A DNA stretch of 44,609 nucleotides from a virus (IMGVR_UViG_3300045988_011059:1-44609), one strand, 5' to 3'; shown: positions 42,245 through 44,609, numbered from the stretch's first letter. Program-made: numbers and translations. Notes: generated from the letters alone by a model not told the origin.

Positions 42245-42463
42245 ATGATATTCAGAGACCGTAGCAGCCTAAGAACGCCGGATTGTCCTACGTTCGAGTT
42301 CGAAGACAAAGACGGGGATGTCTGCTGTATTCAATTTTATAAAGACGATGAAGGCGAGTGTGGGCTTGTAGAGTTGCAGGTTTACAGCGAAACCGGTTGT
42401 GTTGTATTAAGTGCAGACGATGCTGAATCACTAGCTCGTAAGATACTTGAGGGTGTTAAATGA
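42245..42463 (+). CDS. Hypothetical protein (72 aa)
   Basis: ORF track frame from ATG 42245 with GGAGTG RBS. Confidence 0.5.
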   Translation: MIFRDRSSLRTPDCPTFEFEDKDGDVCCIQFYKDDEGECGLVELQVYSETGCVVLSADDAESLARKILEGVK

Positions 42464-42753
42464 GCCTTGCAACTGACATCCTGAAACGAAGAGGCCTTGA
42501 GCCGCTGTCACCGAGAGCTAAGACGCGCATACACAAGCGCCGCCATAACGCGCTGTACCCGGAGATTCAGGCCAGACGCAAAGCTGTCCGCGCCTGTGGG
42601 TTCCAGAACGGGAAGGCCGTAAATCTCGGTGAGTTCAAAACACAGGAACGTGCAGCTATCGCTAACCGGTTATTTAATTACTGGAAATCTCTGGGATACG
42701 ATGATATTCCGACGAAACCGCAGAGACGACAATACATCTGGAGACACAAATGA
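42460..42753 (+). CDS. Hypothetical basic protein (97 aa)
   Basis: ORF track; ATGA coupling on both sides. Confidence 0.55.
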   Translation: MSLATDILKRRGLEPLSPRAKTRIHKRRHNALYPEIQARRKAVRACGFQNGKAVNLGEFKTQERAAIANRLFNYWKSLGYDDIPTKPQRRQYIWRHK

Positions 42754-43190
42754 CTACTATCGCGTTTGACGGAAAGACAATGGCTTGCGACACGCGTGTT
42801 GTGTGCGGAAGTAACTGCTACAACACTGGCACTAAGATATACGAGAATGATTTTGCTGTTATCGGGGTGGCGGGTGATGCGGGGGTAGGCGCTATGCTTA
42901 TCGATTGCCCCGGTATCCTTCGGGCAAAGCACTATGACTTCGATTTCGAAGCCCTGGTGTTCGTGAAAGACACAGAAAAGGTGTATAAAGTCGCGTTTTA
43001 TAAATCATGGGATTGTGCCCTTAGTTCGGTTATCCCTGTCGCCGATAGCTTTGCCGCCGTTGGGTCCGGCTCGCCCTATGCGTTAGCGGCTATGTATTTG
43101 GGCGAAACCGCAACACGCGCGATTACTGTAGCCTCTCAATTCGACATTAACACCGGCGGCAAGATTATTACCAAACAACTATTAGGATAA
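42750..43190 (+). CDS. HslV / proteasome beta-type Ntn-hydrolase-like protein
   Basis: N-terminal MTTIAFDG matches the Thr1 nucleophile context of HslV (MTTIVS); IYENDFAVIGVAGDAG parallels LYNDKVIAGFAGGTADAF; AAVGSGSPYALAAMYL parallels IAIGSGGPYAQAAARAL; compared from memory. Confidence 0.65.
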   Translation: MTTIAFDGKTMACDTRVVCGSNCYNTGTKIYENDFAVIGVAGDAGVGAMLIDCPGILRAKHYDFDFEALVFVKDTEKVYKVAFYKSWDCALSSVIPVADSFAAVGSGSPYALAAMYLGETATRAITVASQFDINTGGKIITKQLLG

Positions 43191-43204
43191 TTCCTAACCG
43201 TGCT

Positions 43205-43244
43205 ATCCTCCAGTTACTGCATACTTAATACGCACCTGGAGGAT
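43205..43244 (+). promoter_or_regulatory. Hairpin sequestering the holin ribosome-binding site
   Basis: ATCCTCCAG (43205-43213) is the exact complement of CTGGAGGAT (43236-43244), which contains the GGAGGA RBS of the holin. Confidence 0.4.
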
Positions 43245-43249
43245 TCATC

Positions 43250-43558
43250 TTGGATAAATTTACTGAAACTGTGACAGGCTGGCTTCTGGCTGCCGCACTC
43301 GCTGGTGGGGTAATCGGACTACGGCAGCATAAGTCCGTTATTTCTGGCCCCATCGACGGCTTCTGCTTTATTGCAACTGGCTTCACTTGCGCCGTATTTG
43401 GCGCACCCCTCGCGGCACAATGGTTCGGCATTACTGGCGACCGTGAAATCGCCGGTCTGGGCTTCATTATCGCTATTCTCTGGATGCCTATCTATTCCCG
43501 CCTCTCTGGTATCGTTGCCGGAGAATACATCGCACGTCGAGGGGGTACAGATGAATGA
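43250..43558 (+). CDS. Holin
   Basis: 102 aa with three predicted transmembrane segments; TTG start with GGAGGA RBS; immediately upstream of the endolysin. Confidence 0.65.
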   Translation: MDKFTETVTGWLLAAALAGGVIGLRQHKSVISGPIDGFCFIATGFTCAVFGAPLAAQWFGITGDREIAGLGFIIAILWMPIYSRLSGIVAGEYIARRGGTDE

Positions 43559-43823
43559 GTTATTCTGGTTCGGCGGTATGCTGGCAATCGGGGGCACATC
43601 GCTGTTTAATGTATACCACCCAAGCGTTGACGACGGACTATTTGGCCGGGTGCTCTATATCCTGACCGCTATTGTCTGCGCTGCCGGGTGCATCCACCTG
43701 TTACAGGGCAGCATGTCCCCCACGCTGCCAGAGACATTAATCACATTAGTTGCGCTGCGTCAGATTCGTCAGGCGTGGCTATCGTACGGAGGACATAAGC
43801 GTGTCTCGAAACATTTCAGATAA
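43551..43823 (+). CDS. Holin-like / antiholin membrane protein
   Basis: ORF track frame from ATG 43551 (ATGA overlap); two hydrophobic helices. Confidence 0.55.
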   Translation: MNELFWFGGMLAIGGTSLFNVYHPSVDDGLFGRVLYILTAIVCAAGCIHLLQGSMSPTLPETLITLVALRQIRQAWLSYGGHKRVSKHFR

Positions 43824-44286
43824 TGGACTGCATTTCACCGCTGCGTTCGAGGGATTCCGCGGAACTGCGTATCGTGCTACACCAAACGAGAAGTACCTTA
43901 CTATCGGATATGGAAGCTATGGCCCTCATGTTAAGGCAGGACAGACCATCACCCCCGGACAAGGCCTCCTGTTACTGAATCGCGATATGGCTAAGGCCGT
44001 AGCTGCGGTTGACGCCGCAGCGCACCATTCCCTTACACAGGCACAGTTCGACGCAGTGTGTGACCTGGTGTATAACGCCGGTGCTGGCGTGATTGCCGCT
44101 ACCACTGGTACGGGTAAAGCGCTGCGTTCCGGGGATATTGCGACGCTGCGGGCTAAGCTGGCGCTGTTCATTAACCAGAACGGCAAACCATTACTAGGCC
44201 TGCGTCGCCGTACTGCCGGACGTCTGGCACTGTTCGACGGTAAACCGTGGCAGGAGGCTGAGGCTATTGGACGCGCGGTGAAATGA
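43801..44286 (+). CDS. Endolysin, GH24 lysozyme
   Basis: AAFEGFRGTAY catalytic Glu context and TIGYG motif as in lambda R / P22 gp19 / T4 e; GTG 43801 with GGAGGA RBS. Confidence 0.85.
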   Translation: MSRNISDNGLHFTAAFEGFRGTAYRATPNEKYLTIGYGSYGPHVKAGQTITPGQGLLLLNRDMAKAVAAVDAAAHHSLTQAQFDAVCDLVYNAGAGVIAATTGTGKALRSGDIATLRAKLALFINQNGKPLLGLRRRTAGRLALFDGKPWQEAEAIGRAVK

Positions 44287-44499
44287 TGGACGAATCCGAA
44301 GGCATTTAGTATTCTGGTTAGGCCAAGTTTTTCGTATTTGCTAATGGAGACCATTATGGCACTGCAAGAGTTCACCAGCCCAGTTAAATCTCGTGACGAT
44401 ATTGACGAGTCTATTGGTTACGGCGAAGGTTGACACCTAAGGCCAATCCTACGATACTTAAATCACCTCCTGCTCCATCCCTCTGCTCTCCAGTTTTAT

Positions 44500-44529
44500 C
44501 CCGGCCCTGACCCAGCCGGGATTTTTTTT
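44500..44529 (+). terminator. Rho-independent terminator abutting the terminal repeat
   Basis: CCCGGC-CCTGACCCA-GCCGGG hairpin followed by ATTTTTTTTA, which is the start of the 89-bp repeat. Confidence 0.7.
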
Positions 44530-44609
44530 ATCTATTTTCTGTAATGACTAGTTGACTATTACCTACGACCATATTATATCTACTCCATCGACAACGAGAA
44601 CGGAGTAGA
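44521..44609. repeat. Second copy of the 89-bp terminal repeat
   Basis: Identical to 1..89. Confidence 0.95.

Follow-up and report, generated by a model that had tools for sequence, protein, structure and literature searches.

The stretch of DNA analysed here, which we refer to as the window, is 44,609 nucleotides long and is the complete genome of a Kagunavirus-type siphophage (Guernseyvirinae); over 42700-44609 it shares 84-90% identity with many phages, among them Escherichia phages UTEC10, G AB-2017 and phiEc3. Bases 1-89 are identical to bases 44521-44609, owing either to an overlap left in the record of a circular assembly or to a terminal repeat, and the unique length is 44,520 nucleotides. 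All genes around the hairpin that is the subject of this study lie on the plus strand (Table 1), and the product of the first holin gene matches the profile phrog_2359, 'holin', with E = 4e-29. The lysis genes (43250-44286) begin, in order, with TTG, ATG and GTG, two of the three starts being non-ATG, and the second and third of them each begin within the end of the gene before. Behind the endolysin there is no spanin-like gene, only an ORF of 25-31 codons (44338-44433). The top sigma-70-like promoter of the window (TTGACA-17-GATACT, 44430-44458, plus strand) is followed, about 40 nt further 3', by its strongest terminator (44499-44521 and T8), a layout that would yield a transcript of about 60 nt located between the lysis cassette and the operon after it and that resembles the pR'-6S RNA-tR' arrangement of lambda; Rfam matches at 44430-44529 were weak and sRNA-like, all of them below threshold. 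Upstream of the lysis genes, the plus-strand segment 40729-40760 holds another of the window's four perfect inverted repeats of 9 bp (TACGCTGCT/AGCAGCGTA); with its 4-nt loop and T-rich tail it looks like a terminator within the rightward operon.

Table 1. Genes and sequence features at the holin hairpin and in the adjoining lysis cassette, counted from the first base of the window.
Feature	Coordinates	Strand	Remarks
97-aa gene, function unassigned	42460-42753	+	From the ORF list
HslV-family peptidase gene	42750-43190	+	Upstream of the hairpin; many relatives are without this gene
Candidate extended -10, TG-n-TATCCT	43201-43209	+	Overlaps the foot of the 5' arm; hypothetical
Near-invariant block	43204-43270	+	-46 to +20 relative to the TTG; hairpin, start and first 7 codons
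Hairpin 5' arm, ATCCTCCAG, anti-Shine-Dalgarno	43205-43213	+	From the repeat search
Hairpin loop, 22 nt	43214-43235	+	Predicted inner 3-bp helix, UGC 43218-20 with GCA 43232-34
Hairpin 3' arm, CTGGAGGAT, including the GGAGGA Shine-Dalgarno	43236-43244	+	Invariant in Kagunaviruses
Remainder of spacer	43245-43249	+	Degenerate counterpart of the U-tract of relatives
Holin gene 1	43250-43558	+	TTG start, 102 aa, three predicted membrane helices
Second holin-like gene (holin 2)	43551-43823	+	phrog_2508; ATG overlaps the holin 1 stop
Endolysin, last gene of the lysis cassette	43801-44286	+	GTG start; PF00959
Strong terminator	44499-44529	+	From the genome terminator scan

The initial annotation had described a 9-bp inverted repeat ahead of the first holin gene, together with a TTG start for that gene, and both are real. 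ATCCTCCAG is the exact reverse complement of CTGGAGGAT, and the repeat search of the window gave arms that are 100% complementary over 9 bp with 22 nt between them. The GGAGGA Shine-Dalgarno sequence (43238-43243) lies inside the 3' arm and is separated from the TTG at 43250 by a 6-nt spacer, TTCATC (43244-43249); the Shine-Dalgarno:anti-Shine-Dalgarno duplex amounts to -9.3 kcal/mol. An in-frame TAA at 43226-43228 makes the TTG the earliest start available, and the only alternative, a GTG at 43271 (codon 8), has no Shine-Dalgarno sequence. The protein begins MDKFTETV, the TTG-encoded Met-Asp-Lys aligning with the ATG-encoded MDK of the Dhillonvirus homologues, and the same 309-nt coding sequence with its TTG is annotated in the relatives Shashou and fBC-Eco01.

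Calculation of the folding energy, proposed at the outset as a check on the structure, came out in its favour: the segment 43195-43260 folds with -16.7 kcal/mol (z = -2.9, with one of 200 shuffles as good) and the hairpin alone with -14.2 kcal/mol, and the MFE fold adds a 3-bp lower helix between GUG 43200-02 and CAU 43246-48. Opening of 43236-43252 was predicted to cost 10.2-13.8 kcal/mol in the presence of the 5' arm; the prediction falls to 6.4 kcal/mol for an RNA that begins at 43216, and to 5.3 kcal/mol with a mutated arm. The Rfam 15 covariance models gave nothing overlapping 43190-43260, even at E <= 10. An RNase III processing site comprises about two helical turns (~20 bp) of double-stranded RNA, and the helix falls short of this, with 9 bp in the window and at most 13 bp in a relative (Salmonella phage LSPA1). 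Two further elements at the locus were considered and rejected. One is a small hairpin, TTAGGA/TCCTAA (43182-43197), in which the variable positions 43185 (G/A) and 43197 (A/C) do not compensate; the other is an upstream ORF of 24 codons on the plus strand, from GTG 43200 to TGA 43274, which has no Shine-Dalgarno sequence and is not kept in Dhillonvirus and the L115 type. The counterpart of its GTG is ATG in the distant relative L102 and in Jerseyvirus, reads GTG ATA TAG in Dhillonvirus and is CTG in the L115 type. This ORF covers the conserved block of Table 1 almost exactly.

The 9-bp repeat by itself is not above chance. With loops of 3-30 nt allowed, the window has 4 perfect inverted repeats of 9 bp, against 5.4 +/- 3.2 expected from Markov-1 simulations, and since the count equals the chance expectation the repeat alone proves nothing. 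The predicted pairing of the holin Shine-Dalgarno sequence, 0.89, ranks third among 54 candidate gene starts, with equal or higher pairing at two others, and is therefore high without being unique. The same arm pair was found in at least 120 unrelated viral contigs in an IMG/VR scan, which is about the number expected by chance on our own estimate and is uninformative. The case for the hairpin rests on its position and on its conservation and covariation in relatives, not on the repeat itself.

The conservation was assessed in 39 IMG/VR loci and two GenBank phages that carry the same holin, giving with the window 41 distinct sequences. The mean pairwise difference is about 0.01 in 43204-43270 against about 0.2 in the holin coding sequence, and this block stays near-invariant while the coding sequence diverges by up to 27%; in L032 and in L040 (Shashou) there are 0 differences in 75 positions upstream, against 83 of 306 and 75 of 306, respectively, in the holin coding sequence. 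The 5' arm shows a single change among the 41 sequences, A43212>G in L038, by which an A-U pair becomes G·U. In L102, which is more distant (its holin is 66% identical and also has a TTG start), the 5' arm is ATCCTCTGG, with C>U and A>G giving two wobble pairs and the 3' arm unchanged, and the loop is wholly replaced by one of 9 nt in a stem of 12 bp, whereas in LSPA1 changes in the loop lengthen the stem to 13 bp. L102 and LSPA1 show that the helix can do without this loop. The arm changes fit pairing in the plus-strand RNA only, as the minus strand would give A·C mismatches, and they speak against both a DNA palindrome and a protein operator. In the copy of Salmonella phage VT223 that precedes a 48-codon holin remnant, one stem pair and the upstream TG are lost. 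Among the E. coli Kagunaviruses the 22-nt loop is near-invariant and the synonymous sites of codons 1-7 are invariant, and this conservation of the loop and of synonymous sites is not accounted for by a simple stem. The motif TTACTG, present in the loop at 43214-19, recurs at 43260-65 in the holin coding sequence.

The locus also varies in its gene content. In relatives that are without the HslV-like gene, the stop of the 97-aa gene is followed directly by sequence homologous to 43173 onward, identity resuming at 43173-43180. The presence or absence of the HslV gene occurs with holin alleles A and B in all four combinations, and these combinations indicate that the conserved block is also a site of module exchange. 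Two Salmonella phages are reciprocal mosaics, with both joins just past a shared LAGG motif: in LSPA1 (L028/L104, 1293-1503) a holin remnant of 32 codons, headed by a Jersey-type hairpin and a GTG, precedes a full holin with a Kaguna-type hairpin, and in VT223 (L103, 1261-1504) the 48-codon remnant, headed by a Kaguna-type hairpin and a TTG, precedes a full holin with a Jersey-type hairpin.

Homologous holins of other siphophage groups are preceded by a hairpin at the same place, and the sole Shine-Dalgarno-like sequence lies in its 3' arm. In Dhillonvirus (HK578 group) the arms AGTCCCAGTGAG and CTTACTGGGACT enclose 6 nt and are followed by T6 and an ATG; in the KW1E-like phages TTCCCCGGA and TTCGGGGA enclose 7 nt and are followed by T8 and an ATG, with a compensatory variant, ATCCCCAAA/TTTGGGGAT, in L130; in Jerseyvirus AATCTCCGAAGG and CTTTCGGAGATT enclose 8 nt and are followed by a T-run and a GTG; and in L115, L117 and L119 the arms CTCCGTATGG/CTATACGGAG, and compensatory variants of them, precede an ATG without a U-tract. 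The spacer tails read TTTATTTTG in L102, TTTTTTATG in Dhillonvirus, TTTTTTATTGTG in Jerseyvirus and TTTTTTTTATG in KW1E. Compensatory changes within clades were found in L100, in L115/117/119 and in L130. The Kagunavirus and Jerseyvirus elements align column for column, and in their alignment (A3) pairing is kept in 97.3% of cells, with both partners changed at 5 of the 10 pairs; in slid controls, in which the partner was moved by 1-3 columns, the paired share is 32-64%. RNAalifold found the same helix unaided. As the stem does not vary within the Kagunaviruses, the covariation comes from a small number of independent events, chiefly the one deep split between Kaguna and Jersey and three wobble changes. 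The covariance model (R1) matched only one site in the window and failed to recover the Dhillonvirus and KW1E hairpins, and the comparison across clades was therefore carried out by hand and by script. Taken together, the invariant block, the wobble-only changes in the arms and the compensatory changes relative to Jerseyvirus support the view that the helix is under selection. In more distant homologues, from the Ounavirinae and contig L129, a terminator lies further upstream and the Shine-Dalgarno sequence is free, so that occlusion is not universal in the holin family and the arrangement is specific to these siphophages of ~41-45 kb. A search of bacterial genomes for holin homologues found none.

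The hairpins of the Dhillon, Jersey and KW1E types score as canonical intrinsic terminators abutting the holin start, with d'Aubenton-Carafa d values of +25 to +28 and 6-8 T. The hairpin in the window fails this score (d = -42 to -55, with a 22-nt loop and a tail score of 1.5-2.3), its tail, TTCATCTT / UUCAUCUU, being an interrupted U-tract with 5 T in 8, and L102 is intermediate, with its 12-bp stem, a U-rich tail (UUUAUUUUG) and d = -8, similar to the terminator at 44499. Two terminator scans of the window did not report the holin hairpin, and of the 12 compact GC-rich terminators of the tetraloop type with a T-run on the plus strand none is at the holin. We propose that a terminator/RBS module once preceded the holin and that the Kagunavirus lineage would have kept the Shine-Dalgarno lock and lost the terminator features; the Kagunavirus hairpin is thus probably derived from such a module, and translational occlusion would be the function left once the tight loop and the U-tract had decayed. 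The TTG start, itself U-rich, may be what remains of that tract. The initial annotation overlooked these terminator-like counterparts in sister groups, as well as a possible extended -10 that overlaps the 5' arm.

Several other explanations have to be weighed against translational occlusion. The 5' arm could be a chance complement of a strong Shine-Dalgarno sequence, in a block that is kept as a junction for homologous recombination between modules or as the DNA site of a dimeric protein, and this would agree with the chance rate of inverted repeats of this size in the window, with the roughly chance number, on our own estimate, of unrelated viral contigs that share the arm pair, with the four HslV/holin-allele combinations, which imply crossovers in or near the block, and with the reciprocal holin-module joins of LSPA1 and VT223. 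Nevertheless, the substitutions in the arms are wobble-compatible on the plus-strand RNA only, the helix is kept with differing sequences and compensatory changes in the Jersey, L115, Dhillon and KW1E clades and with a replaced loop in L102, and a protein operator would not tolerate a change of the loop from 22 to 9-15 nt; we consider an absence of any RNA function highly improbable. It also appears very unlikely that the hairpin acts on transcription, as a leaky terminator or attenuator or as a 3'-end stabiliser of the upstream operon, with an incidental Shine-Dalgarno overlap. The terminator scores of the Dhillon, Jersey and KW1E counterparts, the U-rich tail of L102 and the 5 T in 8 that the window retains would be in line with such a role, but the d value, the 22-nt loop and a tail score of at most 2.3 in the window are not, and both scans miss the hairpin yet find the 12 plus-strand terminators elsewhere. 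Moreover, the L115 type keeps the helix with its Shine-Dalgarno sequence though the U-tract is entirely absent, and in the Kagunaviruses the stem is perfectly conserved and the U-tract degenerate.

The remaining explanation, which we regard as doubtful, is modelled on T4 gene e, which together with soc, 49 and I-TevI provides an established precedent (PMC3014915). Arm-less transcripts, from which holin is freely translated, would start at a weak promoter of the sigma-70 extended -10 type that overlaps the 5' arm, and the read-through RNA would be silenced (or, in the relatives, terminated); the hairpin would then insulate holin from early read-through rather than throttle the real holin mRNA. 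The candidate has one freely variable base, n at 43203 (C or G), and predicts a transcription start near 43216, about 7 nt past the -10; it reads TGcTATCCT in the window, and the Dhillonvirus and Jerseyvirus counterparts are TGATATAGT and TGTTAATCT, respectively. TGnTA shows little or no variation among the Kaguna, L102, Jersey, L115 and Dhillon types, the variation falling in n and in the flanks, and the L115 type keeps TGATAAT although it lies outside the stem; the TG is lost in the VT223 remnant copy. On the other hand, the KW1E-type phages have no TG, and in the window the TG may instead serve the lower helix of the MFE fold. The match TTAGGA-16-TGc-TATCCT is the best by PWM in the 160-nt neighbourhood and is in the top 0.23% genome-wide, but some 200 genome positions reach or exceed its score and a sigma-70 consensus scan reported no promoter at the hairpin. 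The -10 hexamers are poor, TATCCT having 4 of 6 matches and TAATCT and TAACCT 3 of 6, and the -35 is weak, with a spacing of only 15 in L102; the motif TGNTATNNT occurs in the window at chance frequency (19 observed against 18 expected), and CGTGNTATCCTCC is not enriched there. In the sister groups, where a strong terminator abuts the start codon, the polymerase must read through or start inside, and a promoter inside the hairpin would explain how it gains access to the lysis genes behind the terminator. In L129 a terminator is followed directly by TATAAT before the holin, and in the window the predicted drop in opening cost to 6.4 kcal/mol without the 5' arm is what such a start would bring about. 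If the lysis mRNA did start inside the hairpin, the main holin message would be without it, which is a possible limit on the role proposed here. It is just as tentative, and in our view improbable on balance, that a three-in-one module combining a terminator or translational lock, an embedded extended -10 promoter and the RBS is common to the Guernseyvirinae (Kagunavirus, Jerseyvirus), Dhillonvirus and the KW1E-like holins. If true, it would be a sigma-70 analogue of the T4 gene e switch that governs the onset of the lysis genes, and a further regulator of the short leader could lie behind the lack of variation in the loop and in the first 20 nucleotides of the coding sequence.

The reading that we favour, with a probability of roughly 55%, is that a cis-acting hairpin in the plus-strand mRNA hides the Shine-Dalgarno sequence of the holin and lowers holin translation on transcripts reading through from upstream. 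Transcripts that read in from the upstream rightward operon would carry both arms, and a 30S subunit would have to open a helix of about -14 kcal/mol before it could bind the Shine-Dalgarno sequence; the helix and the weak TTG start would together keep holin synthesis low, and low synthesis would delay the reaching of the triggering level. The cost of the hairpin together with the TTG points to selection for low holin output. The initial annotation had suggested that holin translation is throttled, possibly as a lysis-timing device. Of this suggestion, the location of the Shine-Dalgarno sequence in a stable, selected helix and the cost of opening it in silico hold, and it is from the sequence, predicted stability, conservation, covariation and homologous position of the hairpin that we infer the reduction in translation itself, its size and an effect on the timing of lysis. 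On the thermodynamics of initiation, an extra opening cost of 5-8 kcal/mol should lower translation by one to two orders of magnitude.

Melting of the hairpin by translation of the upstream gene, which had also been put forward, is unlikely. The upstream TAA (43188-43190) ends 14 nt before the 5' arm, and on the geometry of the ribosome footprint 14 nt past the stop is beyond the reach of a terminating ribosome. In addition, the distance from the upstream stop to the hairpin is 14 nt in the window, ~30 nt where the HslV-like gene is absent and 108 nt in L102, and a distance that varies in this way while the hairpin stays the same argues against such a coupling.

In phage lambda, a stem-loop upstream of S controls the access of ribosomes to the Shine-Dalgarno sequence, and the rate of holin translation sets the time of lysis (bioRxiv 10.1101/2025.05.14.654169). 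The window is like lambda S in that a stem-loop lies immediately 5' of the holin start, where it would control access to a G-rich Shine-Dalgarno sequence, but the lambda structure splits initiation between the Met1 antiholin and the Met3 holin, whereas the window has one TTG start, no Met-Lys-Met motif and no second Shine-Dalgarno sequence, with the next in-frame GTG at codon 8. The stem is longer in the window, with 9 bp against a lambda structure, known as 'sdi' in the older literature, that spans -21 to -7; the holin proteins are unrelated and, unlike the dual start of lambda, the window has a separate second holin-like gene downstream. In phage T4, inhibitory hairpins in the leaders of e (lysozyme), soc, 49 and I-TevI hide the Shine-Dalgarno or start sequence when the transcript is a long read-through product, and in the gene e class the DNA of the 5' strand carries a promoter whose late transcripts are without the inhibitory arm (PMC3014915). 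The window shares with gene e a lysis gene with a sequestered Shine-Dalgarno sequence, but the counterpart of the promoter in the arm is only a candidate: T4 has a gp55-dependent late promoter, TATAAATA, with mapped 5' ends, whereas the window has a weak sigma-70-like TGnTATCCT predicted from sequence. With the Dhillonvirus, Jerseyvirus and KW1E hairpins the window has in common the order of anti-Shine-Dalgarno arm, loop, Shine-Dalgarno arm, U-rich spacer and start, although those have stems of 9-13 bp, loops of 6-8 nt, 6-8 U and ATG or GTG starts, in place of the 22-nt loop, broken U-tract and TTG of the window. In MS2, local RNA structure blocks the start of the lysis gene and so limits the amount of lysis protein, and this structure is opened by ribosomes terminating in the overlapping coat frame; in the window, unlike in MS2, the upstream stop is too distant and its position is not conserved.

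An RBS occluded by structure is long established for phage lysis genes, and the advance made here is incremental. Our literature search found no paper describing this hairpin, and no transcriptome or transcription start-site paper for Kaguna-, Jersey- or Dhillonviruses; the type of control is known and, on this search, has not previously been described in this phage group. The level of holin sets the moment of lysis and hence the burst size, and Kagunaviruses and Jerseyviruses have been isolated widely with a view to therapeutic use against E. coli and Salmonella. The analysis defines a conserved control region of 66 nt and within it a specific helix that could be mutated to change the timing of lysis, and it shows that in several siphophage genera a hairpin with the Shine-Dalgarno sequence inside it lies directly against the start of the holin.
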